Virus record (IMG/VR): IMGVR_UViG_3300031454_000003
Location: 1 to 61,736 of that record
DNA: 61,736 nucleotides
Reading direction: 5' to 3' (one strand)
From: a virus
This document shows, in pieces, positions 893 to 61,736 of this stretch. The notes beneath the pieces are model-generated. The model saw only the letters and a list, made by a program, of their open reading frames with translations. It was not told the DNA's origin and did no database searches. A program made the translations under genes and the position numbers. Every line of letters starts with the position of its first letter. Within the stretch, counting starts at the first letter, position 1.

Positions 893-3800
893 TCAGCGCC
901 TCCGGGGGCGACGTGACCACTCGAGGGTGCTGCCCGCTGCGTTCGTCGCCATCTTCTCAACTGCGGCAGCGAATCTTTCGGCAGCGTCAAACTGTAACCG
1001 CGCCGCGTTCATCATCAGGCTCGAGGCGCGTTCCATACCGGCAACGGGCGCGGCAAACGAATCTTTAAGCCCGCTGAAGGTGATGTTTAAGCTCAGCGCG
1101 CGCTCTTGTTTACTGCTGAGTGCGAGCGTCCGCGAAGGTCCGAACAGGTCGAGTAGGCCGGTCGTAGCGGCAGCGTAAGCGAGAGCGCCGCTTGTGGCGT
1201 AACTGTAGTCAGGCAAGAACCCGTCAGCGGCAAACGCGCCGATGCTGGGCATAAAGTCTACGGGTGAGATGACCGGCGCTTCACCTGCGTAGCCCGATGA
1301 GCTGGGTGTAGGTGGCGTCGGCAGTTTCGGATACTTGAAGTTTTTAATTACGTCGGCAATACGGCCAAGCGCCCGCTGTAGGGCGGTCTCCTGATCGTTA
1401 ATAATGCCGATGTACTTGTCCATCCCGGTTTTGTAGGCGTCGCCCTGATCGCTAAACGTCGAGTTCGTTTTACCGATTACGTCGTCTCTCATTTTGCCGA
1501 GTGCGCCGGTGACGGTTGACACCGCCGAGCTGAGCGCCGACTTTTCAACGCCGGACGCTTTATCAATGATGCTGCGGAACTCGCGGCTGCCGTTGTCGAA
1601 CGTGCTGCCGATACCCCGGTAGCCTGAATCGGTGTCGCTAGAGATGGACTTTTGCCACGCGCCGAGCGCGCCGGACAAGAGCTTTTCGGCTCCTGAAATG
1701 GCACTCTGTTCAGATTTGGCGCTGCTGTCTATTTGGTTCTGATAGTCGCGGCTATCAGCCTCGTGCTCACGTTTGAGGGCGTCGTACTCACGTTGTAGGG
1801 TGGCTTTTTCGTCGCCTTTTGCCGACGCGATGAGCCGCTCAAATACGGCGGACTCTGCCGAAAACTTACTTTGCTCGGCTTCATAGGCCCGCTGAATTTG
1901 CGAGACCATCTCGCTCGAGCCTTTGCTAAGTCCGCCCGTCACGTCGCCGTAAAGCGAACCGATAGCCGACGTGATGTTTCCGCTTATGTTGCCGACGGTA
2001 CCTGAGACCGCGCTGCCTTGGGTCGTGAAGGCTTGGCTTTCGTCGTTTCCTGACGCGCTTATCGCCGCCGTGAAGATTCGTGAAGCTACCCCAACGGTGT
2101 TGCCCATGCCCGCGTAATCACCGTTTAGGACGCCGGTGATTTTTGAGACCGTATCGGTAATGCTGCTGCCGATAGCGGTGCCGCTAGTGTTGACCGAGTT
2201 GGTTACGTCGCCGGTCATGCTGTCAAACGTGGCCGCGATCTCCCCGTCTACCTGCCGGGTTGCGTCGGCGATACTCATACCGCCGCGCACAAGTTCTTCA
2301 ATACGGCTGTTTCGGGTCGAGAGTTCCAGGGCGACCTTCTCGCGCCCCGCCGCAATCTCGGCGGCAGTCATGTTCGCGCCGCTGATGAACTCGTCTTGCA
2401 GGCGCTTGGCGGATTCTCTGAGTGCGGGTGTTAGGTCGCTACGCTCGAGTAGACCTTGGAGGGTATTCTCCCGGTCCGTAAGGGCTTGCGCTTCGGTTTC
2501 CGCCCCGGCGTCTATACCTGCGGCGGTCTCCCTGCTGCCTTCTTCGTATGCGCCTGACTGCCCATCGTAAGTTGCTTGAATCAAGCCGATGATTTCATCG
2601 GCGGCGGGACCGAGCAGCGCACGGAGTTGAGCGTAGATATTGTCGAGAGCCGCTAATTGGCTCTGGTTACCTGTTTCAGCCGCTTGTCCGGCCTCTGCGC
2701 CGCCCTCTGTGTGTGCCGCCTGCTGGCCCTCGTACGTCTCATTGATAAGGGCGATAATCTCGTCAGCAGCTGGTCCCAGAATCGCGCGCAACTGTGACTC
2801 AATGTTGGACAGCGCCGCCATATGCTCAGCGTTCCCCTGTTCGGCCCCCTCTGAAACGCGAGCGCCGCCCTCGGTATGCGCGCCGTAGACCTCGTTATAC
2901 ATATCCTCGAGGTACCCGGGCAGCTCAATTCCATACTCGCGGGCGGTGGCGATAAAGTCGAGCAGAGCAAGCCGCTGTTCTTCGGTCATGTCGCCGAGAA
3001 CTTCTTGGTTCCCCTCGATGACGGCTTTCCAGTATTCTCTTTCGGACAAGCCTAGTTCTTCAGCCTGCGTTTGGGACTCGAGCAGAATAGCAGCTGAGGT
3101 GTTCGCGTAGTTTTCTTCCAATGCGTCACGTCCGGGCGCAACGATACTTTCTGCGTACGCTTCAGCTTCCTCACGGCTGATGCCGGGGTTAGCAAGAATG
3201 TACGCCCGGATGATGTCTTCCTTGTCTGTTTCTAAATCAGCCATGTCGTCCATAAACGATTGATGGGCGTCTAGAATTTTTGCGTTCGTCTCGAGTATGA
3301 GTATTTCAATATCAGACGCGCCCTGTGCTTTGGCAAGCCGGATACGTGAGTCTAGTAGGCTGTTCTCCCATTCGTCGGTAGCGTCGTTAAAGCTGTCTAT
3401 CTGATCTTGCAGCGCGGCTTCCATGCTTTCGCGCATTTCAGAACCGGCATTGTCCCAGTCGTTGCCGATGTCCTCGGCGTAACCGTCAATGGCGTCGCCA
3501 ATAATTACCGAGCCGTTGGCTACCGACCCGGCAACACCTGAGTTACCGGACTCGAGTTCAGCGATAAAGTCTTCGGTACTTTGCCCTGCTGCGAGCGCCG
3601 TATCAATACCGCCCTGAACGATGGCGTCGGCATTTAACTCGCCACCTTCTCGAATGGCGGTCTCTTCGGCGTCGAAGCCATCGTTGATTAGAGCGATGTC
3701 ATCAGGGTCGGTAATACCCTGTAGCGCCTCCCGCCTGCGTAGCGCAACGTCGGCTAAATCGTCGTTTACCTGCCGCTGGTTTTCAATGAGGTCAAGCTGG

Positions 3801-6800
3801 GTGTTGATGATGTTAAAGCTAAGCTCATCGAGCGCACCGGTCGCAAGGTCATTTTCGGCAAGTTGACGCATGTTGTCTATAGACTGGTCGATGGCACTGT
3901 CAAGTGCGTCCATCGAGCCCGTCATAGCGTCGGTAAACTGCTGCATCTCGCGCTTTGATTCGCTTACGAAGTCGATAAAGGCGTTTAACAGACCTCCCAG
4001 CGCCGCGATAGCCGCCCCGATATAGTCGCCGCTGGCAGCCTTTAGTGCGACCTGCGCGATGTCATCGATTGCTTTGACGCCCGCGTAGGCGGCGGGGCTA
4101 AGGTCGTCTCGGAAGCCTTCAGCTAGAGCGTCGATACCCGCGCCGAGAACAGCGATGCCTTCAGACGGCGTGACGACGCCATCTGAGAGCGCCTTAGACA
4201 TTCCCTTACTTGCATCCGAGAGGGCTTGCAGACCCCCTCTTGCCTGATCGGAAAGTCCAGGTATGTCGGCAAGCGCCCGGTCTGCCGCTGCACCGATCTC
4301 GTCAAAAGTAGAGGCAACATCACGCGCCAAAGCTAAAGCACGAAGGTCTTCTTGGGTCTGCCGCGCTTGCTCGCTGAGTCTGCCTGTCCCCTCTGCCGCC
4401 GTGTCGAGCGAGCTAATGAGGTCGGCTATGTCCTCGGTGGCGATACCTGAAGCGTCACCTAGTGCTTGCTGGGCGTCGCGGGTAGTTTTGAGGTTTTCGG
4501 CGTAGCGTTCGGCAGCTTCTTTTGCACGTTCTACCGCTTCAGCCTGCGCCTGAGTCTTGTCCTCAGACTCTTGCAGCGCCGTGACCCAGCCCTGTAGCCC
4601 GACCGTCGCCGGGTCGATACCTGCACGGTAGAGAGTCTCGAGTGCGCCTTGATATATCCCGGTCTTGTCGGCGTTGAACTTCGCCGCGTCGCCTGTGATA
4701 GTGAAGGCGTTCTCTGCCTCCTGTAGGGCGTTGCGTACCGTCCCCATCACATCGGCAAGAGTGTTGGTCTGTGAGATGGTCAGGGTAGAGCTAGAGGTGT
4801 ACCCGTCCTGTGTTTCTTTCAGGACACGCCACGAGTCGGAAGCCTCAGCCGCCGCTCTAGCTGCCTCGGCTTGTGCCGCTGCTAGCGTGTTGGTTTGGTC
4901 TGTAGCGATAGCCAGGCCGAGTTGCTCGAGCACGGTGGTCTGCTGATGAAAGACGGTAAGCCCATCCGCAATGGTTTTATTTAGGCCGCGCTGTGCGGCT
5001 TCTTGAGCAAACGCGGCGTCGGTGTTTGCTCTTATCGCAGCTTCGGAGGCGTCTTGGGCGTCAGCGTAAAGGTTGACGTTCTGCGCTGCGGTGCTCCATC
5101 CGAGCTGTTCGATGAGCACGCGCTGCTGGGCGAATATGGTGCTGACCGCTTGGATACTCTTATTCGCTTCGCGCTGCGCGTTGTCGTACTCGGTAACACC
5201 GTCTCTGAAGTTTGCGGCTGCGGTTGTTGCTTCCGTAAGTCGAGCCTGAACCGCCGCGATGTCTTCGTCAAACTTCTGTAAGTCTGCGGCGTCATAATCG
5301 CCAGAGGCCAGCGTATCGGCTTTTTGCTGCTTGAGTTCGGCAAGTTTGGCAGTCAGGGCATTTATCGCGGTCGTAGAGCTTATCTCCCCGCGCTGGAACG
5401 AGCTGACGATATTGTTCGCCATGTCCGCAGCGGTGCGGCCTATCTCTTCAATGTTCGCCGCAAGCCTATCGCCCGCTTCGATCTGTGAATCTATCGCCCG
5501 GATAGCTTGCAGGGCTTCAGCCTGCGCCGCCGACCCGATAGGTGAGTTTTCGTAAATCTCTACCAGCCGCTGACGCTCTTCGCGCAACGCAAGTAGTGAA
5601 CCCTCTTGCGCTTGGTTTGCTTCGCCCGCTTCGCCTTGGGTCTTGATGTATTGCTCTACGCCCGCGATAAGGACGTTGACCTCTTGGGCAACGTGCGGAT
5701 AGGCGGTGCGAAGGGCCTTAAGTTGGTTTAGAAATTGCTGGGCCTGTTCGGTGCTGAGGTTTTGCAGGCCGTTGTATTTTTCTTGCGCCCCGGTAAGACC
5801 GCCGAGTTTGTTCGCCGCCTCAACAGTTGCCTGACCGCCTCGGTTAAGCACTTCTATTTGGGCTTCGCCCTGAGAAATGAGGGGGCGCAAGGCCGCCTCG
5901 AGCTGCGGATAGACCTGCAACGCTGCGTTCAGACGGTCAACGTAAGCTTGCACCTCAGCTTTGTTTGTGCTGTACGCCTTACCCATATTGTCTATAGCGC
6001 GCTGCTGTTCTTGTTCGGCGGTTCCTAGTTTAGCTGCCGAGTCCGCCGCTTCATTTTGTGAGGTTGCAAGGCCGTCTATGCTGTCTGCTGCTGCGTCCGT
6101 AGCGGGCGGTAGACCGAAAACACCGCGTACGAAATTATCTACAGACACTAGGTTCTTTTGGTTCTCCGCTTGAAACGCCTGCATACCCTTAGTGTCAAGA
6201 GCGTCGTCTATAGCCGTGCTGATGGTGGCGTAGGTATCTTTAATGCTCTGACCTACACCGACGATTGCGCCACCGATACCGGCGATACCAGCGCCGAACT
6301 GTGCGAAGGATATACCGATCTGGCGCGCCAGTGTTTCGCTACGCCCCATAATCGGCTCGAGGCCAGCCAGACCCCGCGAAAAGTCAAGGACGTTGTTCAG
6401 TAGTCCCTGAAAAACCGGCAAGACTGCCAGCGCCATTTTGTCGCCTAAGAAACCGAACGCGCTACCGATGAGCGTAACCGTGCTGTTGAGGCTTTTTAAC
6501 TTAGCGTCAACCTCAGTTTGAAGGGCGTTTAAGTCTTCAGCTTCAGCTCGAGCCAACTTAAGTGATAAACCAAAGTCTTCATACCCGCCGACTAAGGCGT
6601 CGAGAACTCGGATGTTTTCAGAACCGCTAAAGCCCAAGTCGGCGTAAATGCCGACAAGGGACTCGCCGGAATCACTTGCTTCTTTAATGCCGCCAGTGAG
6701 CTGATAAAACGCTTCGACCGGGTTTTCCTTAAACAGCTTGGCAAACTCTTCCGAAGTCAAACCCGTGATCGCTGCAAACTTATCTAACGCCGCGCCGCCT

Positions 6801-9800
6801 TCGTCTACAGCCTTAACGATGATGTTAAAGATGCGTACGGTGCTTTCGCCGCCAGCTTCGGCGCTGAACCCTAGACTCGCGAGCGCGCCCGCCATACCTA
6901 AAATCTCAGTCTGAGACGCGCCCGCCGAGGTTGAGAGTCCGGTGAGGCGTGAGGCAAGCGCCAAGATAGGTGCTTCAGTAGTACGCAGGTTGTTGCCGAG
7001 TTCGGTGATAACGTTACCGACCAGATTAGCCGAGTCGGTGATAGACACGTTTGCGTCTTTTGTCAATCCGACGAACGTAGCAAGTTGCTGAGCACCCTCT
7101 TCTCCGACAATATCTGTGGCGATGCCCAGCTTGTTCATGATGTCAACAAAACCCGCGATGTTGTCAGCGCCTTTAATGCCGAGCTGACCCGCAACCGCCG
7201 CGTACTCCTGAAGGGCTAAGACGCCTGTGCCCGTTTCAGTCGAAATGCCTTGTAACTTCGTTTGCAACAAACCGAGTTGGTCTTGAGTCAGGCCGGTAGT
7301 CTTACCGATAGCAACCAGGCCGTCATTTAGGTCGCCAGCCCGGTCGAAAAGTGCTTTGGTCGCTACCGCCGCGCCGATGATCGCGCCGACCACACCGACC
7401 GTCAGGGCGATGTTCAACGCCTTAGCCGACAGCGAAGCTCCGGTCATTCCAGCCGACGCGCTGAACATGGCAACGCCCATCGCTTCACCCGCAGGCCCGA
7501 GGCGGTAAAGGACGTTCTGAAGCTGGTCCGAAACCCCCGCCGTGACACCTGACGCGACCCCAAAGGTGCGTACCCGGCCCTCGGCTTGCGCTAACGACGA
7601 TTCAACCCGAGTGAGACCGGTGGTGTAATTTGCGTAGGCGCGGGTGCTGTTATCCAGACCCGAGCGGCTCTGCTCGAGCGCCACGCCGATGCCGCGCGCC
7701 GAAACACTGAACTGTTCTTGCGAGATGTCGCCACGCTCTAAAGCCAGCTTGAGCTCGTTTAGTGCCGCAACTTGCTGCCGGACGTTCTCAGCCTGAAAAG
7801 CGTCACCGGCCCGCTGCTGGGCTGTGGCTAGACGCGTTGCCGCACTCTCGGTCTGCCCCATCACAGAGGCGAGCGTGCGCTGCTCGTTGGCACTTAGCGT
7901 CGTGCTATTAGCGAACTCGCGTAAACGCCCCTGAAGCGCCTCAATAGCGCGGGCGGTCTGGTCAAACGAGGTGACGCCGTTTTTGTTGGCGGTGACGATC
8001 TGCTCTAGGTCGCTGCGGAACGTCTTGAGCGCGTCAACCCGGAACGCTGCCTCGAGCTTGCTCTGCTCGGCGACAAGGCGGGTCGTTGCGCCCTCAAGCT
8101 CGCGCTCTACATTCTGTAGTGCCGTCAGCTCACGGACCGACAGGTTCGCCGCTTGTCCCGAGTCACGCAGTGAGGTGTCGAGTTTATTCAGTTCGCCTTC
8201 AATGCCTGAGAAAGCGGTACCCAGCTCACGCCCGGTGCTCTGCAAGTCCTTGAGTTCGGTGCTGTAAACCCGCACCGGCCCCGCGTCGAAGGCTCTGCTT
8301 GTGCGCTCGGCTGTGGTGCCGACCTCTAGCAGCGCCCGCTCGGATACGTCTAGCAACTTATTGAAGTCAGCAAACTCGCGGCTGTTCTGGTTCAGGGTGC
8401 TGCCGTACTCGCGCAGTCTGCTCTGCGAATCCGACACGGCGCGGGTAAAACCCTCTGCGCCGATCCCGCCTTTGTCGTAAGCCTGCACCGCGTTTTGCAA
8501 CTCACCGACGAATGAACGCAGTGCCGAAGCGTCAAACGCTCGAGCTGCTCGCTCCTGCGCCCCGGCGAAGGTGTCGGCGCTCCGGCCCGCGTCGATCTGT
8601 AAACGTGAGAAGGTATCCAGCTCACGCTCAGCTATCCCCAGCGCGGCGGCGTAGTCCTTGAACTCGGTTTGTATCTGCTGCACAGCACGAGCCGCTTGCT
8701 CGGTGCTGGTGAGGTTGCTCTTTTGCGCTTTTTCAACGTCACGGAGGCGCGCTGTGAACTGCTCGATTTCAGCACCGCGATAAGCCTGCGCCGCGCGCTC
8801 CTGTTCCCGTGTCAACGACTGTGTAGCGCGCTCGGTGGCGTCCATGACCCGGACGAGTTCCTTGTGCTCACTCGAGCCCTCTGAGAGCCCACGAGCATAG
8901 TCCTGTAACTTACCCCTCAAACCCTCGAGACCGCGCCCTAACCCGTCAAACGACCCACTCAGGCGCTCCTGCTCACCCCGGTACTGTGAAACTGCGCCTG
9001 AGTCGTACTTTAAGGCGCGCTGCTGTGAGTCGAGCCGACCGAGTTCGGCGGTCGTATTGCGGAGGGTACCCTCGAGCTGTTTTAGTTCGGTGCCGTAGGT
9101 GCGGATCTGGGCAGCGTCGTTTGCGCGAGAAGCCTTCTCCGCTGCCGTCTGATACCGCTCCTGCTGCGCTGCCGCCTCTTTAAGTAGACGACTGAACTGA
9201 TCGAACTCACGCCCGGTATTCGTGAGCGCGGCCTGTTGTTCTTTTAGTTCGGCGCTGAGTTTTTGTACACGTGTTGAGGCGTTCTCAAAACCGTCGGTGC
9301 CGGACTTTACCGCGGCGTCAATCTGCTTAAACTCGCCCGCGTAACGGCTGAGTTCATCACTGCGAAAACTAGCCGTGAGTTTGTCGGCGTCCGCCTCGAG
9401 TTTTTTGATCGCCGTCCCGGTGTCGCCCATCGCCTTAATGACAGACTTATACTCGGCGCTGTTTTTCTCGAGCGCGCCGGTCTGCTGTGCTAAGGCACTC
9501 TGATAGCTTTTGAGCTGAGAGATGGCCTGCGTTTGTGATGTGACGCCCGCTTTTTGCGCCTGCACGATGTCGAGTAGTCCCCGACCGTAGCGGGTCAGGT
9601 CTTCAGTCTTGTACGACGCGGTGAGGGACTTGTTGAGTGACTCTAGCTTTTTGCCCTCGTCGCCTGCCGCTTTCATATCTTTAGCGATGCCTAAGTATCC
9701 GGCCCCGGCTTTGTCCAGTACCGCAACCTGACCTTTTAGGATGGCCTCAAGCTCCCGGTAGCGTTGCAAGCTGCTCTGTATCTCTGCCGCGCCAGCCTTG

Positions 9801-10045
9801 ACCGCGTTCGCCAGGTTTTGCATCTCGCGCAGGGTCAGCTGCGCTTGTTTGGCGAGCGGGTCTAGGCGAGCGTTCGCTTCTTTGGCAGCGGTAGCGAGAC
9901 CCTGAAGGGCGCGCTCGAGAGTATCGGTAGATTCCTTTTTAAAGGTTTTCTCTACGGCCTGCTCGACCTCTTTTAGTGCTGTGAGGACTTTGCTGTTATC
10001 GAGTACGATTCCTACGGTTAAGGAAGCTAGCGGAATTTCTGCCAT
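893..10045 (-). CDS. tail tape measure protein, 3050 aa
   Basis: Giant ORF between the tail-tube genes and tail-tip genes. N-terminal third is made of coiled-coil repeats, with central Gly/Ala-rich hydrophobic stretches. SD GGAGGGG lies upstream. Confidence 0.9.
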   Translation of the reverse strand: MAEIPLASLTVGIVLDNSKVLTALKEVEQAVEKTFKKESTDTLERALQGLATAAKEANARLDPLAKQAQLTLREMQNLANAVKAGAAEIQSSLQRYRELEAILKGQVAVLDKAGAGYLGIAKDMKAAGDEGKKLESLNKSLTASYKTEDLTRYGRGLLDIVQAQKAGVTSQTQAISQLKSYQSALAQQTGALEKNSAEYKSVIKAMGDTGTAIKKLEADADKLTASFRSDELSRYAGEFKQIDAAVKSGTDGFENASTRVQKLSAELKEQQAALTNTGREFDQFSRLLKEAAAQQERYQTAAEKASRANDAAQIRTYGTELKQLEGTLRNTTAELGRLDSQQRALKYDSGAVSQYRGEQERLSGSFDGLGRGLEGLRGKLQDYARGLSEGSSEHKELVRVMDATERATQSLTREQERAAQAYRGAEIEQFTARLRDVEKAQKSNLTSTEQAARAVQQIQTEFKDYAAALGIAERELDTFSRLQIDAGRSADTFAGAQERAARAFDASALRSFVGELQNAVQAYDKGGIGAEGFTRAVSDSQSRLREYGSTLNQNSREFADFNKLLDVSERALLEVGTTAERTSRAFDAGPVRVYSTELKDLQSTGRELGTAFSGIEGELNKLDTSLRDSGQAANLSVRELTALQNVERELEGATTRLVAEQSKLEAAFRVDALKTFRSDLEQIVTANKNGVTSFDQTARAIEALQGRLREFANSTTLSANEQRTLASVMGQTESAATRLATAQQRAGDAFQAENVRQQVAALNELKLALERGDISQEQFSVSARGIGVALEQSRSGLDNSTRAYANYTTGLTRVESSLAQAEGRVRTFGVASGVTAGVSDQLQNVLYRLGPAGEAMGVAMFSASAGMTGASLSAKALNIALTVGVVGAIIGAAVATKALFDRAGDLNDGLVAIGKTTGLTQDQLGLLQTKLQGISTETGTGVLALQEYAAVAGQLGIKGADNIAGFVDIMNKLGIATDIVGEEGAQQLATFVGLTKDANVSITDSANLVGNVITELGNNLRTTEAPILALASRLTGLSTSAGASQTEILGMAGALASLGFSAEAGGESTVRIFNIIVKAVDEGGAALDKFAAITGLTSEEFAKLFKENPVEAFYQLTGGIKEASDSGESLVGIYADLGFSGSENIRVLDALVGGYEDFGLSLKLARAEAEDLNALQTEVDAKLKSLNSTVTLIGSAFGFLGDKMALAVLPVFQGLLNNVLDFSRGLAGLEPIMGRSETLARQIGISFAQFGAGIAGIGGAIVGVGQSIKDTYATISTAIDDALDTKGMQAFQAENQKNLVSVDNFVRGVFGLPPATDAAADSIDGLATSQNEAADSAAKLGTAEQEQQRAIDNMGKAYSTNKAEVQAYVDRLNAALQVYPQLEAALRPLISQGEAQIEVLNRGGQATVEAANKLGGLTGAQEKYNGLQNLSTEQAQQFLNQLKALRTAYPHVAQEVNVLIAGVEQYIKTQGEAGEANQAQEGSLLALREERQRLVEIYENSPIGSAAQAEALQAIRAIDSQIEAGDRLAANIEEIGRTAADMANNIVSSFQRGEISSTTAINALTAKLAELKQQKADTLASGDYDAADLQKFDEDIAAVQARLTEATTAAANFRDGVTEYDNAQREANKSIQAVSTIFAQQRVLIEQLGWSTAAQNVNLYADAQDASEAAIRANTDAAFAQEAAQRGLNKTIADGLTVFHQQTTVLEQLGLAIATDQTNTLAAAQAEAARAAAEASDSWRVLKETQDGYTSSSTLTISQTNTLADVMGTVRNALQEAENAFTITGDAAKFNADKTGIYQGALETLYRAGIDPATVGLQGWVTALQESEDKTQAQAEAVERAKEAAERYAENLKTTRDAQQALGDASGIATEDIADLISSLDTAAEGTGRLSEQARQTQEDLRALALARDVASTFDEIGAAADRALADIPGLSDQARGGLQALSDASKGMSKALSDGVVTPSEGIAVLGAGIDALAEGFRDDLSPAAYAGVKAIDDIAQVALKAASGDYIGAAIAALGGLLNAFIDFVSESKREMQQFTDAMTGSMDALDSAIDQSIDNMRQLAENDLATGALDELSFNIINTQLDLIENQRQVNDDLADVALRRREALQGITDPDDIALINDGFDAEETAIREGGELNADAIVQGGIDTALAAGQSTEDFIAELESGNSGVAGSVANGSVIIGDAIDGYAEDIGNDWDNAGSEMRESMEAALQDQIDSFNDATDEWENSLLDSRIRLAKAQGASDIEILILETNAKILDAHQSFMDDMADLETDKEDIIRAYILANPGISREEAEAYAESIVAPGRDALEENYANTSAAILLESQTQAEELGLSEREYWKAVIEGNQEVLGDMTEEQRLALLDFIATAREYGIELPGYLEDMYNEVYGAHTEGGARVSEGAEQGNAEHMAALSNIESQLRAILGPAADEIIALINETYEGQQAAHTEGGAEAGQAAETGNQSQLAALDNIYAQLRALLGPAADEIIGLIQATYDGQSGAYEEGSRETAAGIDAGAETEAQALTDRENTLQGLLERSDLTPALRESAKRLQDEFISGANMTAAEIAAGREKVALELSTRNSRIEELVRGGMSIADATRQVDGEIAATFDSMTGDVTNSVNTSGTAIGSSITDTVSKITGVLNGDYAGMGNTVGVASRIFTAAISASGNDESQAFTTQGSAVSGTVGNISGNITSAIGSLYGDVTGGLSKGSSEMVSQIQRAYEAEQSKFSAESAVFERLIASAKGDEKATLQREYDALKREHEADSRDYQNQIDSSAKSEQSAISGAEKLLSGALGAWQKSISSDTDSGYRGIGSTFDNGSREFRSIIDKASGVEKSALSSAVSTVTGALGKMRDDVIGKTNSTFSDQGDAYKTGMDKYIGIINDQETALQRALGRIADVIKNFKYPKLPTPPTPSSSGYAGEAPVISPVDFMPSIGAFAADGFLPDYSYATSGALAYAAATTGLLDLFGPSRTLALSSKQERALSLNITFSGLKDSFAAPVAGMERASSLMMNAARLQFDAAERFAAAVEKMATNAAGSTLEWSRRPRRR
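2552..2881 (-). repeat. tandem 165-nt (55-aa) duplication inside the tape measure
   Basis: AHTEGGARVSEGAEQGN..LRAILGPAADEIIALINETYEGQ is followed by AHTEGGAEAGQAAETGN..LRALLGPAADEIIGLIQATYDGQ. Confidence 0.8.
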
Positions 10046-29556: not shown

Positions 29557-29655
29557 TATATATATAAAGGGGTGCTGTTTTAGACACGGGGGGGGTGTGC
29601 AGGGGACAGCACGGGGGGGGGGTGCTAAAACGGACATAGGGGGGGGTGCTAAAAA
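29557..29655. other. putative replication origin: G-tract iterons next to (TA)5
   Basis: (TA)5 at 29557..29566. G runs of 4, 8, 4, 10 and 8 nt. GGGGTGCT occurs 3 times plus GGGGTGTGC once. Lies directly 3' of the initiator-like gene. Confidence 0.45.
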
Positions 29656-29993
29656 TCACCTTTAACCGCCTCCCAATCCTCTGCAAACTCTCGAGTCTCG
29701 GATTGTCTGATGTGCTTAAACGGGTTGCCGAAAGCTAGGTAGTAAGTGTTTTCCGACTGACTGCCGTCCTTGCGGTACTGGGCCTGTCGTTTGACAAGCC
29801 CGTCGTCTATAAGTGCATTGAGATGACTGATTGCCACACGGCGAGAAACACCCGTTGCTTTGACGATCTCCCTAACAGTCAGGTTGCATTCTCCTGAGTC
29901 ATTAGAGTTAGAGGCTAGGTAAAGCAGAATGAGCTTCCGGCCCGCTGGAGTCACGGGAGTATTCCAAGCCCACCGATAAGCGGTGCGGCTCAT
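29649..29993 (-). CDS. winged-HTH replication initiator/organiser-like protein
   Basis: YRWAWNTPVTPAGRKLILLYLASNSNDSGECNLTVREIVKATGVSRRVAISHLNALIDDGLV. ATGA-coupled start. Confidence 0.5.
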   Translation of the reverse strand: MSRTAYRWAWNTPVTPAGRKLILLYLASNSNDSGECNLTVREIVKATGVSRRVAISHLNALIDDGLVKRQAQYRKDGSQSENTYYLAFGNPFKHIRQSETREFAEDWEAVKGDF

Positions 29994-30175
29994 GCTGCGT
30001 CGTCCTCGAGCCCGGTAAGAAGCAAGAAGGCGGTTTCGGCGTCGCCTCTCTCGGCGTAACAGTTGTGACATTCGGCGTCCCATTCGGCGTAGTGCGCGCC
30101 GCAGTTTTCGCAGTGCCATACCGGGACGCTAAACACGCCGCCGCAGGTAAGACACTGATACTCGGGGCCGGTCAT
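29990..30175 (-). CDS. small double zinc-ribbon protein
   Basis: CLTCGG...CENCG...CHNC. Confidence 0.5.
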   Translation of the reverse strand: MTGPEYQCLTCGGVFSVPVWHCENCGAHYAEWDAECHNCYAERGDAETAFLLLTGLEDDAA

Positions 30176-36614: not shown

Positions 36615-37607
36615 TTAGTTGAGGTTGGCTGTAATGGTTCGGTTGTCACCGGGCATCTCCACAATGCGGATTGCCTCCGCTGCTTTTTGTAGGTGGGTTA
36701 TGGCGTCCTCAATTCCGATCTCAACGGCGTTGACGTTGTAACGCGCCGTCTCTTTGCTGTGCGCTGCGCGGTGATAGTCCGAAAGCTCGAGGTTTGTTAT
36801 CGACTCGAGCGCGTTAAGAACCTTGTGGGTGATGTCGTAATCAAGCTCTCGTTTCTGGGCTAGACGAGCTTCTTTCATCTGCTTAGCGACTGACACCGCT
36901 TCGTGTATGGTCTTTTTGCCTTCGGTCACTTCTTTGCTTAGAGCTTTGTCTTTTGCAACTGCTATACCGTCATTAACGGACACAGCACCGGTACTTATCG
37001 CCTCTTGGATAGGATCAGGTGCTCTAACAACGGTGTGCGCCGCATGAGTGCTGATCTCGTCTTTTTGCCACGCTTCCTTGACAGGCTCAGGCGCACCTGC
37101 CTTAACCTGTTTTCCTCTGCGATACTGACTTTCCGACATCCCTAAGAGCTGACCGGTTTGCTTAGCTGTTGTAGGGACTCGCTGACCCTGCGGTAAATTT
37201 ACTGTAGGGTCAGCTTTACCGGCTTTCATGCGCTCTTCGGCTTTTGGTGCAAAGTAGATTTCATAGGCTTCGCCGATATCTATACGTTGTGAATCCGTTA
37301 GGTGTCGCCTAAAGCGTGCTGCACCAGCTAGGAAGGTGATCTCTTCGCCCTCATCTGCAAATTGTTCGGTGATGGCCTCTAGGGTCTGATAGCCGACCTC
37401 TCGAGCGGCCCTTACGCGCTGATGACCGTCTACGATGACGGGTGAGCCGGTCCGAAGAGAAACCCTTATGGGCTCTTTGATGCCTCTTGCCTGTACGTCG
37501 GCAATAAAGGCCGTCCAGTCGTCGCCCTCAATGTTCGGAATGTTCTTTTGCCAGGGGTGACTCTGTAACTCTTCGGTCCGGTACTCGCTAAGAGAGTTCG
37601 CGTTCAT
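36615..37607 (-). CDS. ParB-like nuclease-domain protein
   Basis: IKEPIRVSLRTGSPVIVDGHQRVRAAREVGY. Confidence 0.7.
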   Translation of the reverse strand: MNANSLSEYRTEELQSHPWQKNIPNIEGDDWTAFIADVQARGIKEPIRVSLRTGSPVIVDGHQRVRAAREVGYQTLEAITEQFADEGEEITFLAGAARFRRHLTDSQRIDIGEAYEIYFAPKAEERMKAGKADPTVNLPQGQRVPTTAKQTGQLLGMSESQYRRGKQVKAGAPEPVKEAWQKDEISTHAAHTVVRAPDPIQEAISTGAVSVNDGIAVAKDKALSKEVTEGKKTIHEAVSVAKQMKEARLAQKRELDYDITHKVLNALESITNLELSDYHRAAHSKETARYNVNAVEIGIEDAITHLQKAAEAIRIVEMPGDNRTITANLN

Positions 37608-38511: not shown

Positions 38512-38550
38512 GTGACCTCCGTATAATCAAATTAGTAATAAGGTCGGGCT

Positions 38551-38600
38551 TAAAAATAGCTCTGCTAAGATGCACTTCTCACAGCAGCATCTAGCAGAGC
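38551..38600 (-). terminator. strong intrinsic terminator inside the early-operon leader
   Basis: Sense strand reads GCTCTGCTAGATGC (13-nt loop) GCATCTTAGCAGAGC TATTTTTA. Confidence 0.6.
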
Positions 38601-38870
38601 CAAGCGGACGGGGTGGTAGTCAGTCTATCACCTCTTTTTATTTGTAGCTCGGTTAATACGTTGAACGCACGACCTAAGCATTTGCCGGTGCGCCCCCAGT
38701 GGATCATTAGCTACCTTTGTTTTTAAGAGCCTGAACTGGCTCCCGCTACCTACACGGTTCCGGGTGGGTCCGATCCCCATAACTCGGATGCCATAAAGCA
38801 GTTGCTAAGTGCTCTATGTATCCTCCAAAGTTTTCAATGTTCTCAGGTCTTCATCGGTTCTTAACCTAGC

Positions 38871-38899
38871 TTGACCTAAACCAAAGCTTATAGTATAAA
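38871..38899 (+). promoter_or_regulatory. repressor promoter: TTGACC-17-TATAAA, 7 nt before the ATG (leaderless)
   Basis: ttgacc taaaccaaagcttatag tataaa tctagta ATG. Confidence 0.55.
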
Positions 38900-38913
38900 T
38901 CTAGTAATGTCAA
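38887..38913 (-). promoter_or_regulatory. divergent early promoter candidate: TTGACA-15-TATAAG (or -17-TAAGCT), interlocked with the repressor promoter
   Basis: The perfect TTGACA is the complement of 38908..38913, inside the first repressor codons. Confidence 0.4.
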
Positions 38914-39782
38914 TTGCCCACATTACTACCATGATATCTTCACCCTTAATGAAGGTTTGGGCAACAGCTAATGTCAAAACCGCCAAGACTCTTGGTGAAT
39001 TGCTTACGGCGAAACGGTCTGATTATGAAGGTACGCCTGAACAGTTCGACCAGTATGTTGTGGCAGACGCTATTGGCTTTAGCCAGCCTTACGTGAGCCA
39101 AATAGAGAAAGGACATGCCGAAAACCGAGTTCGCAAGTGGCCTTCCAAAAAACAACAGGCTCTACTCGAGGCTTATAAATTCACGACCGAAGAGATTGCA
39201 GAGATCGGCGAGAAGTTTAACCTTGACCTCCCCGGCGTGACCGCCACCGCAACCTTCAGACAACCCGCCGGGCGTTTTCAGGCCACGGCGGAGATCGGCG
39301 CACCCCCGGAGAACACCACCACCCTCGAGGCCACCCGGCGTTTCGAGGTACAAGATACTCACATCACCTTTCGGGTCTACGCGGGTATTTCTGCCGGTCA
39401 TGAAGAAGCGGAGCCTATAGAGGGTGAGGCGTTTAGTATCCCAAGTGCTGACCTGTCAGGCATTGACCCGGTGTGCGTGCGCGTCTACCGCGTCAACGGC
39501 GATTGCATGGTGAGTGAGTCTGCGCGCGGCCTCACTATGAACATCTGTAGCGGTGACAAGATCGCGGTAGATATATCCCAGCGGATCGTCAACAACAACG
39601 ACGTGATAGCGGCCTACTGGCGACCGGGTGACAAGCTCGTGGTCAAACGCTACGTGGAGGCGGGCGACCATATCGTGCTTAAACCGACCTCACCGACCCA
39701 CCCGCCGTTGATAGCCCAGAACAACGATGATTTTGAGATTATCGGCAAAGTAGTATGGCGTGGCGGCCCTTTCCGCGCTTAG
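38907..39782 (+). CDS. LexA/CI-type repressor (XRE HTH plus S24 peptidase)
   Basis: HTH VADAIGFSQPYVSQIEKG. LexA-like cleavage region FRVYAGISAG. Catalytic region VNGDCM ... VVKR. Confidence 0.85.
   Translation: MSIAHITTMISSPLMKVWATANVKTAKTLGELLTAKRSDYEGTPEQFDQYVVADAIGFSQPYVSQIEKGHAENRVRKWPSKKQQALLEAYKFTTEEIAEIGEKFNLDLPGVTATATFRQPAGRFQATAEIGAPPENTTTLEATRRFEVQDTHITFRVYAGISAGHEEAEPIEGEAFSIPSADLSGIDPVCVRVYRVNGDCMVSESARGLTMNICSGDKIAVDISQRIVNNNDVIAAYWRPGDKLVVKRYVEAGDHIVLKPTSPTHPPLIAQNNDDFEIIGKVVWRGGPFRA
39240..39356 (+). repeat. repressor-linker copy of the ATFRQPA(P/G)R..AE(V/I)G repeat shared with the tail fibre
   Basis: TATATFRQPAGRFQATAEIG, then the degenerate TTTLEATRRFEVQ. About 80 percent nt identity to the fibre repeat on the opposite strand. 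Confidence 0.7.
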
Positions 39783-39803
39783 TTATCCACAGGCTTATCC
39801 ACA
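39783..39803 (+). promoter_or_regulatory. two perfect DnaA-box 9-mers (TTATCCACA) between the repressor stop and the lipoprotein SD
   Basis: gTTATCCACAggcTTATCCACAggagg. Confidence 0.6.
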
Positions 39804-39812
39804 GGAGGCAAT

Positions 39813-40418
39813 ATGAAACACATCCGCACCGCTTTACCCTTCGTCCTTACTTTGCTACTCGCTGCCTGCGGCGGCAACGGCCAGACGCCGACCCCGCCCG
39901 CACCGCCGGTAGAGCAGCCCGTACCACCTGTTGTCACGCCACCCGTCACACCTGCCCCGCCTGTAACTCCGCCTACTGAACCGCCCGCGCCGCCTAGCAT
40001 TCCTTACTACGGTGAGTGGGCTTGGAGTTTTACCTTAAACGAAGGTTGCTGTAACGAAGAAGGCCGCTATAGCATCGTCCAAGTACGCGACGTTGACCCG
40101 GCTGGCAGCGGCTTTGGGTTTTATCAAACCTGTTATCAGGGCGACTGTTACGACTCACTCGAGGGCGGGGCCATCATGGGACCGGGTGAAGACAACACTC
40201 TTACGATTACGTTGTTTCAAGTCGATAGCGCGGGCGATTTCGTAGCTATTTACGAAGCTACCGATGATGACGGTGGGCTAACTAAAGACGAGCAAGGTAG
40301 AGATGTTTTCGAGGGTGACGGTCAATATTTCGACCCGAATTATGACGATGGTGATGAGCGCGGCACGTTCAAAGCCATACTTACGGACTTCCCGGTAGCT
40401 TTCCCGCCTGCCCAATAA
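39813..40418 (+). CDS. lipoprotein with a Pro-rich linker (moron or lysogenic-conversion candidate)
   Basis: Signal peptide plus lipobox MKHIRTALPFVLTLLLAAC. Confidence 0.7.
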   Translation: MKHIRTALPFVLTLLLAACGGNGQTPTPPAPPVEQPVPPVVTPPVTPAPPVTPPTEPPAPPSIPYYGEWAWSFTLNEGCCNEEGRYSIVQVRDVDPAGSGFGFYQTCYQGDCYDSLEGGAIMGPGEDNTLTITLFQVDSAGDFVAIYEATDDDGGLTKDEQGRDVFEGDGQYFDPNYDDGDERGTFKAILTDFPVAFPPAQ

Positions 40419-40421
40419 AAG

Positions 40422-40488
40422 TTATCCACAGGTTATCCACAGCCCCCATGCCCATCCCCGCCGCTGCTTATCTACAGCCCCCATGCCC
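40422..40488 (+). promoter_or_regulatory. two perfect and one 8/9 DnaA boxes, within a 21-bp direct repeat
   Basis: TTATCCACA at 40422 and 40433, TTATCTACA at 40468. TTATC(C/T)ACAGCCCCCATGCCC occurs twice. Confidence 0.6.
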
Positions 40489-40520
40489 GAAGACCCCGAC
40501 ACCGACCTCGAGCGCCTAGG

Positions 40521-41000
40521 CTACGGGCGTTTATTGCCTAAACTTTTCCCCTGCTGGTAGCGAGCGTAGACAAAGACCCCGGCGAGCGATCCGAGAGCGG
40601 TGATGATGCCAGCCAGACCCAATAGCCCGTGCCCATCCCTGATGAGTCCTACACTCCACCAGATCGTAAGAATAGCGATAGCCGCAGCAGTTATTGTTCC
40701 CATCCAACTCTGAACGATATCGGAGCCGATACGCCATGACTCAACACGCCGCCGATGCCTCCCCTGCTGCCGAACATCCTCGTACATCCCCTGCGCCATA
40801 CCTGGGACAATCTCGTCATAGCGGGCAAGTGTTTCGGGATCCGGCAGCGGGCCTGAATGGAACGACCCATAAATCTGTGTTGGTTGCTCTAAACCGAGCA
40901 TCCCCTGAGGGGCTTGCCTGGCCTCAAGGCGTGCTTGTCGCTCTGCGTTCTGGCGTTCTAAAGCTTCTTGAGTTCTTTTCGAGCGAGATTTACGACCCAC
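40521..41000 (-). CDS. DUF2335-like membrane protein
   Basis: GSFHSGPLPDPETLARYDEIVPGMAQ followed by two TM helices. Confidence 0.55.
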   Translation of the reverse strand: MGRKSRSKRTQEALERQNAERQARLEARQAPQGMLGLEQPTQIYGSFHSGPLPDPETLARYDEIVPGMAQGMYEDVRQQGRHRRRVESWRIGSDIVQSWMGTITAAAIAILTIWWSVGLIRDGHGLLGLAGIITALGSLAGVFVYARYQQGKSLGNKRP

Positions 41001-41005
41001 CCGGC

Positions 41006-41272
41006 TTATTTAGAAACAACCACACGGTGGGGCTTGGTGACTCTCGCTCTTTCCGCCAAGGCCACCGTGGGTTTCGCCTGATTCATCACGGTTCTGAGAT
41101 CATGGCCGACCATTTGCCAGTCCGAGGCGATGGCGTATGCGTCGGCTTCCTCGGGCGTCCTGCTCACGTTATAGCGATCAAAGGTGCCGAAAAGATCGAG
41201 GACGCGTGCAATACCGGAAATGAATGTCGGTTTGGCAAACAGAATGTCGGTACGCGGTTTGGTCTCGTCCAT
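41006..41272 (-). CDS. hypothetical protein (short form of track ORF 41006..41569)
   Basis: MDETKPRTDILFAKPTFISGIARVLDLFGTFDRYN... Confidence 0.45.
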   Translation of the reverse strand: MDETKPRTDILFAKPTFISGIARVLDLFGTFDRYNVSRTPEEADAYAIASDWQMVGHDLRTVMNQAKPTVALAERARVTKPHRVVVSK

Positions 41273-41455
41273 GTCAACCCCTTTAGTCAGACAACTATAG
41301 CAGATGCTCGCGCGATGTTTGCCGGGGTCAGTTACAGATTTCAAGACCCAGACCCCCTCGAGCCCTGGCTCATCCCCGAACAGGAGTGGGTGCTGATCCC
41401 GGTCATGCCTGTAGAGCCGGACGAAGAGCCGAAGCCGGAGGGCGACTGAGAAACC

Positions 41456-42787
41456 ATGTCTCAACTTGCTACCAAAGCAACCCCCGCCGCCTTCTTGGGC
41501 CGAGTCTCCACACAAAATCAAGCAAAACTCGACAAGCAAGGGTTGCCTGAACAGCGCCGCGCTGCCCAAGCTTACGCTGAAGCGAATGATTTTGAGATTG
41601 TCGCAACATTTGAAGATGTGATTTCCGGGGCGTCGGAAGCGCGCCCCGCTTTTTACGAGATGCTGTCACGGTCTTACGAGTTCAAGGCCGTGATCGTTTC
41701 GCATACCGACCGGCTGGCTCGTGACCTCGAGCTGGGCCTGAGACATATGCGCCTCATCCGTGAGGCGGGTCTCGAGCTGCACAGCGCCGCGCGGGGGCTT
41801 GTAGAAAAGGGCATCGTCTCCGGCGTCGATATGCTCTTAGGTGAACACGAGAAAGAGCGGATCAAAGAGCGGACGCAAAACGGTTTGATAGCAGAGGCTC
41901 GGGACGGTAAATTGCCGAACGGTCTCCACCTTTTTGGCTACCACAACGTACCGGGACAAAACCGAGGTGTGATCAACCCGGACGCAGCCGCTGTCGTACG
42001 GCGCGTCTTCGACCTTGGGGCGCAGGGTCTCAGCTACCGCGCCATTGCACGTGTGATGATGGCGACGCGCGCCCTTACACCGCTCGGTAAAGAGAGCTGG
42101 TATCAGCACACCGTCCGGCGCATGATCTGTAACACCGCCTATAAGGGTGAGTTCGTTTGGACACACAAACGCGGCGGTCGCTTTGTGCTGCCTGTGCCAG
42201 CTATCGTGTCAGCCGAAGAGTGGGCAAAAGCGCAGCGCCACAAGCGCGGCCCGCCTGTACAGGTGCCGCTCCCCTTATCAGGTCGGCTCCGGTGCGGTCG
42301 GTGCGGTGCGGCGATGGGCGTGCGGAAAGTTGACCGGGGCGGCAAGCACGTCTACCTCTACTACCGCTGTGGCAGCGCAGGAACCCCGAGCGGCGCGTGC
42401 GGCGTGGGGCTCGTCAGGCGCGACAAGCTCGAGCCTAAAGCCGAAATCCTCTTACGCGACACGTTGCAACATCCTGACCTGTTACGGGACCTCACGCGCC
42501 CTGACACAGAGCGAGACCAGCACGAGCAGCGCCGCCTTGACGACTTAGGCGAAAGAGCGGAGCGGGTGAAAGAGATGCGTTTAGATGGACTCTACAGCCG
42601 CGAAGAAGCGCGGATAAAAGTAGCGGAAATCGACGCCGAACGACGTGCGCTAACGCAGCAAGACGACACCGAATTTCCCCTCGAGGAGTTTGCCCTGGCA
42701 GCCCGTGAAATGCCTTTTGCCGAGCTTTTAGAGCTTACACAACCGACGTTTTACGTGCAGGGCGACGTTCTTACGCTGGAGTTTTGA
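41456..42787 (+). CDS. int: large serine recombinase (integrase)
   Basis: N-terminal resolvase domain FLGRVSTQNQ, recombinase domain, and Cys-rich zinc ribbon CGRCGAAM...YYRCG. Confidence 0.9.
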   Translation: MSQLATKATPAAFLGRVSTQNQAKLDKQGLPEQRRAAQAYAEANDFEIVATFEDVISGASEARPAFYEMLSRSYEFKAVIVSHTDRLARDLELGLRHMRLIREAGLELHSAARGLVEKGIVSGVDMLLGEHEKERIKERTQNGLIAEARDGKLPNGLHLFGYHNVPGQNRGVINPDAAAVVRRVFDLGAQGLSYRAIARVMMATRALTPLGKESWYQHTVRRMICNTAYKGEFVWTHKRGGRFVLPVPAIVSAEEWAKAQRHKRGPPVQVPLPLSGRLRCGRCGAAMGVRKVDRGGKHVYLYYRCGSAGTPSGACGVGLVRRDKLEPKAEILLRDTLQHPDLLRDLTRPDTERDQHEQRRLDDLGERAERVKEMRLDGLYSREEARIKVAEIDAERRALTQQDDTEFPLEEFALAAREMPFAELLELTQPTFYVQGDVLTLEF

Positions 42788-61692: not shown

Positions 61693-61736
61693 CTATGAGG
61701 TTGACGCTTCTCAGCTCATCACAGTAATCTTCGTGG
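61693..61736. repeat. second copy of the 44-bp terminal repeat
   Basis: Identical to 1..44. Confidence 0.95.

Follow-up and report, generated by a model that had tools for sequence, protein, structure and literature searches.

The phage genome recorded in IMG/VR as IMGVR_UViG_3300031454_000003 carries, between the cistrons of its lysogeny region, two head-to-tail pairs of perfect DnaA boxes that bracket a lipoprotein moron. The analysis covers the whole stretch of 61,736 nt, referred to here as the window. The two pairs are very probably genuine sites for a dimer of DnaA, selected in the phage context, and equivalent pairs recur at moron borders in related contigs. Double DnaA boxes, roadblocks formed by DnaA and paired boxes carried by phages have all been described before; what is new is that perfect double boxes stand between cistrons, bracket morons in the lysogeny region and recur across phages of a probable Deinococcota host. 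The best, though tentative, explanation of this arrangement is that DnaA bound between the cistrons gates read-through transcription into the morons, in the manner of a roadblock or attenuator.

Two pairs of DnaA boxes around the lipoprotein moron

The original prediction described four perfect 9-mers flanking the lipoprotein moron, with an 8/9 copy at 40468 and all copies in the same orientation, and this was borne out by sequence search. The exact 9-mer TTATCCACA occurs four times in the whole window (at 39783, 39795, 40422 and 40433), each time on the plus strand, while dinucleotide shuffling gives a mean of 0.17 copies and none of 100 shuffles reaches four; the 8/9 copy reads TTATCTACA. 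The four exact copies form two head-to-tail pairs, J1 and J2, with start-to-start distances of 12 and 11 nt and spacers of 3 bp (GGC) and 2 bp (GG) respectively, and within each pair both halves have the same orientation and match TTATCCACA at nine of nine positions. Pairs with a spacing of 11-12 nt and at most three mismatches per pair are limited to these two in the window and did not arise in any of 40 first-order Markov randomisations. The shuffles and the Markov randomisations together exclude a chance origin of the boxes, as the prediction had also held. In addition, an extended 13-mer, AGTTATCCACAGG, is repeated exactly at 39781 and 40420.

The positions of the two pairs relative to the genes also agree with those first described, one pair lying in the gap between repressor and lipoprotein and the other directly past the lipoprotein stop. 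J1 occupies the 30-nt gap between the stop codon of the repressor gene (39780-39782), with which the rightward lysogeny transcription unit opens, and the ATG of the lipoprotein gene at 39813, and the last base of the second J1 box is at the same time the first base of the AGGAGG ribosome-binding site. Given that the repressor and lipoprotein cistrons lie on the same strand and 30 nt apart, they are probably co-transcribed. J2 begins 3 nt past the lipoprotein stop.

The reading of these pairs as DnaA boxes is well supported by the double-box architecture, by the use of the box in the likely host phylum and by the recurrence of the pairs at equivalent junctions in relatives. In Escherichia coli, 15 of the 16 regions to which DnaA binds according to chromatin immunoprecipitation and sequencing (ChIP-seq) contain two same-orientation boxes 2 or 3 bp apart, and DnaA binding is lost upon mutation of either box or upon the addition of 1 bp, which gives a 4-bp spacer (PMC11317965). 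At 60 C the DnaA of Thermoanaerobacter tengcongensis leaves a single consensus box unbound and binds two boxes 3 bp apart at 8 nM (PMC1888806). Most boxes described here are followed by a G, as are most of the DnaA-bound sites of E. coli (PMC11317965). By their sequence, the window pairs would constitute high-affinity, cooperative binding sites for the DnaA dimer of the host.

The double boxes in the DnaA regulon of E. coli (Stringer, Fitzgerald and Wade 2024, PMC11317965) share with the phage pairs the same-orientation 9-mers, the spacing of 2 or 3 bp and the G that commonly follows; however, one half of an E. coli site is usually imperfect, and those sites are located upstream of promoters or in oriC, datA or DARS, whereas both halves of the window pairs are perfect and the pairs stand between cistrons of a lysogeny/moron operon, at most 27 nt past stop codons. 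A DnaA box in a transcribed gene end is likewise a feature of the asnC terminator roadblock (Schaefer and Messer 1988, 1989), where, as far as the accounts in PMC10950094 and PMC11317965 describe it, the box is proposed to halt elongating RNA polymerase in an orientation-dependent manner. That site is chromosomal, whereas in these phages double boxes are found repeatedly, at several moron borders, and their dependence on DnaA is a proposal.

The iss (injection-stop) boxes of T5-like phages resemble the window pairs in being phage-borne, always paired (3 bp apart) and away from the phage origin, and they are proposed to hold DNA at the membrane, a function that is unproven (10.1101/866236). The T5 pairs, however, belong to a virulent phage and are embedded in inverted repeats within a long terminal repeat that is not translated (10.1101/866236), whereas the window pairs are direct and lie between coding genes in the lysogeny module of a temperate phage; repeat analysis of this circularly assembled genome found no inverted-repeat frame of the iss type around them. 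The DnaA-box clusters of Bacillus subtilis and the E. coli datA locus also consist of consensus boxes that bind DnaA outside the origin, but they contain more boxes, in mixed orientations, and datA needs IHF, whereas in the window there are two isolated dimer sites of strict polarity and position.

Recurrence of the boxes at moron borders in related phages

A search of relatives for the boxes, which the original prediction had proposed, was carried out and identified 19 boxes, 13 of them exact, at nine junctions in six contigs, counting the window (the others being L001/L125, L128, L130, L131 and L132). Every one of the 19 has the TTATCCACA orientation on the coding strand, all nine paired spacers are 2-3 bp long while their letters vary (GG, GGC, GCC, AGC and ACC), and at all nine junctions the array starts at most 27 nt past a stop codon. 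Five of the nine arrays lie upstream of the next cistron, three of them touching its ribosome-binding site or start codon, and the remaining four lie ahead of a hairpin.

The J1 block is found 5' of the lipoprotein gene in two of these contigs. In L130, whose lipoprotein is 67% identical to that of the window, the gene is immediately preceded by TTATCCACAGGTTATCCACAGGAGGCAACATG, which follows the gene for an unrelated secreted protein; L132, with a 48% identical lipoprotein, the same DUF2335 flank (the DUF2335 gene being nearly identical in the alignment) and a different integrase, carries three boxes on the 5' side of the gene, and one TTGTCCACA in the place of the window's TTATCTACA. J2 has no counterpart at the homologous position of L132, where the window looks as though it had acquired a 24-nt insertion, and an analogous pair is present behind the lipoprotein homologue of L128 (64% identical), 20 nt past the lipoprotein stop and 5 nt ahead of the next ATG. 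L131 has a lipoprotein homologue and a decayed pair.

L001/L125 has a different repressor and two pairs. The first pair lies behind a secreted-protein gene and is followed after 14 nt by a remnant, 108 nt long, of a window-type repressor gene's 3' end (L001 6011-6110, corresponding to about 11850-11950 in L125) and then by another lipoprotein gene, which encodes a PKD domain; the second pair lies behind a small open reading frame (ORF) and ahead of a hairpin. The remnant has 78% amino-acid identity to residues 256-291 of the window repressor, and the contig has a full repressor of its own upstream; the remnant is clearly a recombination scar.

Other relatives have the genes without the boxes. 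L122 has a repressor that is 63% identical overall, and comparison of window 38907-39782 with L122 2404-3264 indicates that the C-terminal (S24) halves, at the 3' end of the gene, are nearly identical in DNA while the N-terminal DNA-binding halves differ, a pattern that suggests an immunity swap via recombination inside the gene. In this contig the repressor reading frame is followed by TAG-CAACCACT-AGGAGGCAATATG, then by a different secreted-protein moron, a hairpin and the integrase gene. L129 consists of the repressor gene, an HSDR_N gene, a lipoprotein homologue and the hairpin, again without boxes. Since the closest relative of the repressor has no boxes, the boxes are independent of the repressor, and they travel with moron junctions across related phages. 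Lipoprotein homologues without boxes are also present in the chromosomal contigs L126 and L127 and in L133, a tyrosine-integrase prophage, and the boxes are best seen as an addition of the phage context.

Across the sites, box positions are 89-100% conserved as against 42-68% for flanks and spacers, figures that are biased in favour of the boxes, since it was a match to the 9-mer that led to the sites. A comparison free of this bias is that of the block from -31 to -1, which contains the boxes and the ribosome-binding site and is 91-94% identical between the window and L130/L132. Identity in the same comparison is 78-84% for the signal-peptide codons, 52-72% for the rest of the gene and 45-50%, the random level, further upstream, so that no part of the cassette is better conserved than the non-coding box block. 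The homology between the three stops exactly at the 5' edge of this block. The AGGAGG ribosome-binding site is conserved in L130 and L132 and also in L122. The third, imperfect box of the window changes at about the same rate as its flanks and thus shows no sign of selection; L132 reads TTGTCCACA at the position homologous to TTATCTACA.

Outside this group, GenBank phages gave no DNA match to 38600-41600 and only distant matches to TerL and the integrase, scans of viral contigs with the lipoprotein and with the integrase found no relatives, and scans of viral contigs for TTATCCACAGGAGGCAAYATG and CCGCTRGCTTRTCCACAG returned only unrelated phages with single boxes. In four unrelated viral contigs (L134 at 1880, L135 at 3797, L136 at 5258 and L137 at 4410; GC 0.44-0.48), a single TTATCCACA is fused to the ribosome-binding context TTATCCACAGGAGGCAAYATG, shortly after a terminator-like hairpin. 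Double-box pairs with the extended motif (a)gTTATCCACAg(g) were found in unrelated viral contigs with a GC content of 30-65%, at least 120 of them. Among the matches listed, 123 double-box sites in 120 other viral contigs were surveyed. By crude ORF calls, some 70% of them lie between genes; they show no consistent orientation with respect to genes, and no one family dominates among the genes downstream. As no positional rule emerged from this survey, the strict polarity described above is specific to this phage group and not general.

A prophage was sought in the named genomes of the genome collection, by repressor protein and by a 35-nt conserved DNA pattern, and none was found; the host was therefore approached indirectly. 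The nearest named homologues of the repressor are from Meiothermus. Chromosomal homologues of the lipoprotein, 48-49% identical, lie on large contigs (ERZ20067608 ptg000350l and relatives) in a conserved locus (ArsC / lipoprotein / CHASE3-GGDEF), and one of these contigs encodes a phosphoenolpyruvate carboxylase that shares 72% identity with the Truepera radiovictrix enzyme and matches many metagenome-assembled Trueperaceae genomes. The host is thus probably a Trueperaceae-like member of the Deinococcota (Deinococcus-Thermus). Within the phylum, Deinococcus radiodurans oriCI has 13 boxes, 8 of which are perfect copies of TTATCCACA, and the DnaA of that organism binds this box (PMC7988490), and the oriC of Thermus thermophilus has 13 DnaA boxes (PMC1888806). 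Because members of the Deinococcota use TTATCCACA, it is unlikely, to the extent that these relatives of the presumed host are a guide, that the host has a different DnaA-box consensus. A double box was also observed in a chromosome of Meiothermus sp. (GCA_037443965.1; L123 5026-5046), where TTATCCACA-AGT-TTGTCCACA lies inside a menaquinone-biosynthesis gene (VitK2_biosynth), antisense to the gene.

Genomic setting and elements downstream of J2

Table 1. Positions of the DnaA boxes, neighbouring elements and genes discussed in the text (window coordinates).
Feature	Position	Strand	Basis or remarks
Iteron-like array, period about 25 nt	29569..29654		adjoins the O-like/winged-helix initiator gene; no DnaA boxes
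O-like winged-helix initiator gene	29649-30119	-	
ParB-like gene	36615-37607		
Divergent promoter region	38512-38906		
CI/LexA-type repressor gene	38907..39782	+	Pfam Peptidase_S24 2.6e-14; HTH_3 weak, below curated cut-off
Double DnaA box J1, TTATCCACA-GGC-TTATCCACA	39783..39803	+	sequence match
AGGAGG ribosome-binding site of the lipoprotein gene	39803..39808	+	read from sequence
Lipoprotein moron	39813..40418	+	ORF and translation; signal peptide with lipobox LAAC, then proline-rich linker
Double DnaA box J2, TTATCCACA-GG-TTATCCACA	40422..40441	+	sequence match
Direct repeat, 35-nt period	40426..40488	+	unit about (G)CCCCCATGCCC-N14-15-TTRTCYACA
C-rich, G-poor stretch	40442..40510	+	36 C and 12 G in 69 nt (52% C, 17% G); GC skew -0.49
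Third, imperfect box, TTATCTACA	40468..40476	+	8/9; outside any 2-3-bp pair
Weak hairpin GAGCGCCU..GGGCGUUU, then UUUAUU	40510..40535	+	-10.4 kcal/mol; overlaps 3' end of the convergent DUF2335 gene
DUF2335 membrane-protein gene, convergent	40521..41000	-	Pfam DUF2335 1.7e-05; phrog_3996 1.2e-24; moron category in PHROGs
Large serine recombinase (integrase) gene	41456..42787	+	Pfam Resolvase, Recombinase, Zn_ribbon_recom

The two ends of the window overlap exactly over 44 nt (1-44 and 61693-61736), which is the signature of a circular assembly and identifies the window as a complete phage genome of about 61.7 kb, not an integrated prophage with host flanks. The phage is temperate and, as its genome encodes an integrase, probably integrates. 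Its replication module (O-like initiator, helicase and primase) is located at 25.4-30.1 kb, and the iteron-like array between the initiator and helicase genes, 10 kb from the boxes and with an exact 16-mer, GGGGGGGGTGCTAAAA, at 29615 and 29639, is probably the phage origin (Table 1). Four HNH endonuclease genes are scattered over the genome (25405-26187, 27098-27880, 42819-43535 and 50575-51216), two of them within the replication module, one of these between the helicase and primase genes, and a third after the integrase gene. A single ORF of 3050 amino acids occupies 893-10045 on the minus strand.

Beyond J2, the 21-bp direct repeat noted in the original prediction is real, but it forms part of a longer match of 28 nt (40426-40453 against 40461-40488, 86% identical) within the repeat of 35-nt period. 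A unit of about 35 nt recurs at 40442-40488 in the window, at 1135-1180 in L132 (J2), at 699-734 in L130 (J1) and, shortened, at 631-659 in L128; its CCCCATGCCC part is also present in L129, and there a small ORF starts within it. In the window, the J2 repeat is spanned by a small ORF (ATG at 40447), which was dismissed because L132 does not keep its frame. By its composition, the C-rich stretch that begins directly after J2 would give a rut-like transcript and may play a role in Rho loading.

The weak hairpin at the end of this stretch was not called by a simple terminator scan. It corresponds to a GAGCGCCC-N5-6-GGGCGCTC hairpin that follows moron stops in L122 (3703-3724), L129 (8634-8654), L130 (1377-1394) and L131 (3886-3906), and the J2 hairpin of L001/L125 is a shorter AGCGCC..GGCGCT form. 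This conserved hairpin could be a terminator, a protein-binding site or even an attP core for the serine integrase. In most cases it has no U-tract, and the L122 copy is found a short way upstream of the gene for the serine integrase. Between the DUF2335 and integrase genes of the window, two long ORFs on opposite strands overlap (41006-41569 on the minus strand and 40694-41449 on the plus strand). L132 keeps only the last 112 or so codons of the minus-strand ORF, and the true gene here is probably short, on the minus strand, and joined with DUF2335 in a unit of two genes.

Possible functions of the box pairs

The strict polarity of the boxes, their position after stop codons and their placement before either the next cistron or the C-rich stretch and hairpin fit a roadblock or attenuator. 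With co-transcription judged from spacing, the boxes at all nine junctions lie within a transcription unit downstream of a coding sequence, which is where a roadblock would be expected, and transcription-roadblock activity is among the properties ascribed to DnaA in the account given by PMC11317965. In such a scheme, host DnaA bound at the double boxes would act upon RNA polymerase arriving from upstream: at J1 it would set the share of repressor transcription that continues into the lipoprotein moron, and at J2 it would help to end transcription ahead of the C-rich stretch and the weak hairpin, before the convergent DUF2335 gene and the integrase gene are reached. Moron expression in the prophage would then depend on the amount of active DnaA, and through it on growth and replication state, and during lytic growth the many copies of the phage would titrate DnaA and so change moron expression. 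An effect of DnaA binding on transcription, and the direction of that effect, are suggested here by the arrangement of the sites. The original prediction offered three options, namely control of read-through into the moron, titration or recruitment of host DnaA as an auxiliary origin or link to the cell cycle, and an operator of a phage protein; the first is the best fit among them, albeit unproven.

Several points weigh against this gating of read-through. L122 and L129 keep the same layout of repressor 3' end, moron and hairpin without any boxes, and the boxes are therefore dispensable. The precedent for roadblocks by DnaA is thin and is weakened by the finding that the classical single-box roadblock site in guaB is unbound in ChIP-seq (PMC11317965). 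The high identity of the block of boxes and ribosome-binding site could stem from recent mosaic exchange and not from purifying selection, and the comparison of boxes with flanks carries the bias of site finding by the 9-mer. Furthermore, promoter and terminator scans predicted no promoter or strong intrinsic terminator near the boxes, the boxes themselves do not resemble a promoter, whichever strand is considered, and the J2 region folds no better than shuffled sequence (z = -0.22). The gating of read-through by DnaA is put forward as the best explanation, but a tentative one, held with less confidence than the identity of the pairs as DnaA sites.

It is also conceivable, though rather unlikely, that the boxes are module borders or recombination linkers, short sequences common to many co-infecting phages, at which moron cassettes swap, insert or are deleted by homologous or microhomology recombination, with DnaA binding incidental or helping only via the stalling of polymerase. 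On its left, the homology among the window, L130 and L132 breaks off exactly at the 5' border of the boxes, behind three different upstream genes; the repressor remnant of L001/L125 is a scar close behind a box pair; the lipoprotein gene is flanked by the exact 13-nt direct repeat; the layout of pair, gene, pair and hairpin is the expected product of the insertion of a pair-gene cassette at a resident pair-hairpin site; and the insertion-like appearance of J2 relative to L132 points the same way. However, a mere linker could be of any sequence, whereas the sequence found is a perfect initiator site with the required 2-3-bp spacing and variable spacer letters, a combination that indicates selection on DnaA recognition, and homology of 13-23 nt is short for efficient recombination. 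Recombination at the borders is compatible with gating of read-through and may operate alone or in addition to it.

A further explanation, which is unlikely, is that the pairs serve as a sink or modulator of DnaA, either by titration, as for datA and the B. subtilis clusters, or by changing its nucleotide state, as for DARS, with the strongest effect upon phage amplification, when host initiation would be delayed or blocked. The pairs are perfect, high-affinity double boxes, of the kind that forms the cores of the datA and DARS ChIP-seq peaks of E. coli (PMC11317965), head-to-tail pairs are widespread among viral contigs, and in T5-like phages paired boxes 3 bp apart are conserved away from origins (10.1101/866236). 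A sink, however, leaves unexplained why the pairs stand after stop codons, on the coding strand and at moron borders, and why they contact the ribosome-binding site in three phages; two pairs per genome would amount to a small sink in a lysogen, neither an inverted third box of the DARS type nor an IHF-type element was seen, and close relatives lack boxes altogether.

Mobile elements such as P1 (oriR), RK2 (oriV) and lambda (pR region) use host DnaA via consensus boxes, often in tandem, and tandem boxes flank the P1 plasmid origin. Their occurrence in RK2 oriV (RK2 is also mentioned in PMC11317965) and the presence of a ParB-like gene in the window are in keeping with an auxiliary origin dependent on DnaA, at which the helicase loader of the host would be recruited for replication of the prophage or for plasmid-like or early replication. 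In those elements the boxes lie beside iterons and AT-rich regions or a replication-driving promoter, whereas here the initiator, helicase and primase are encoded by the phage itself, together with an iteron array 10 kb away, and no AT-rich unwinding element adjoins either pair (GC 0.51-0.62 in 100-nt windows around the pairs). In addition, the pairs are split by a coding gene of 606 bp, and the phage, which encodes an integrase, probably integrates. An auxiliary origin, one of the options originally raised, is for these reasons highly improbable.

The same low standing is given to the option that GTTATCCACAGG, which also corresponds to E. coli oriC box R1 with its flanks, is here the operator of a phage-encoded DNA-binding protein and resembles a DnaA box only in appearance. 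In favour of this are the location of the sites in the immunity region and the exact repetition of the 13-mer. Against an operator, the motif and its flanks are common to the unrelated viral contigs of 30-65% GC and to the DnaA-bound sites of E. coli (PMC11317965); the boxes are direct repeats without dyad symmetry, located downstream of the repressor and outside the divergent promoters; L122, with a near-identical C-terminal half of the repressor, has no boxes; and identical boxes stand behind unrelated upstream genes in L130 and L132 and beside a different repressor in L001. Moreover, no phage protein with a DnaA-type (domain IV-like) DNA-binding domain was found among the ORFs scanned.

Gating and recombination could also be two sides of one arrangement. 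In this more speculative and improbable proposal, the double boxes would be portable borders of an integron-like moron cassette system in Deinococcota phages: the 5' double box would set DnaA-dependent expression of the cassette, and the same pair would provide the homology for its insertion, swap or loss, next to the repressor and ahead of the shared hairpin.

The use of DnaA boxes by phages has been studied mainly at origins, and DnaA is known as an initiator with a small transcriptional regulon. If the gating of read-through proposed here is correct, the host initiator would serve temperate phages as a gate, already in place, between genes that they carry for the host, and moron expression would be tied to the growth and replication state of the cell without any phage-encoded regulator. 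The relatives without boxes provide natural controls for two short sites. Given that head-to-tail double boxes are present in well over 100 unrelated viral contigs, the pairs of the window may belong to a wider, largely unexamined pattern.

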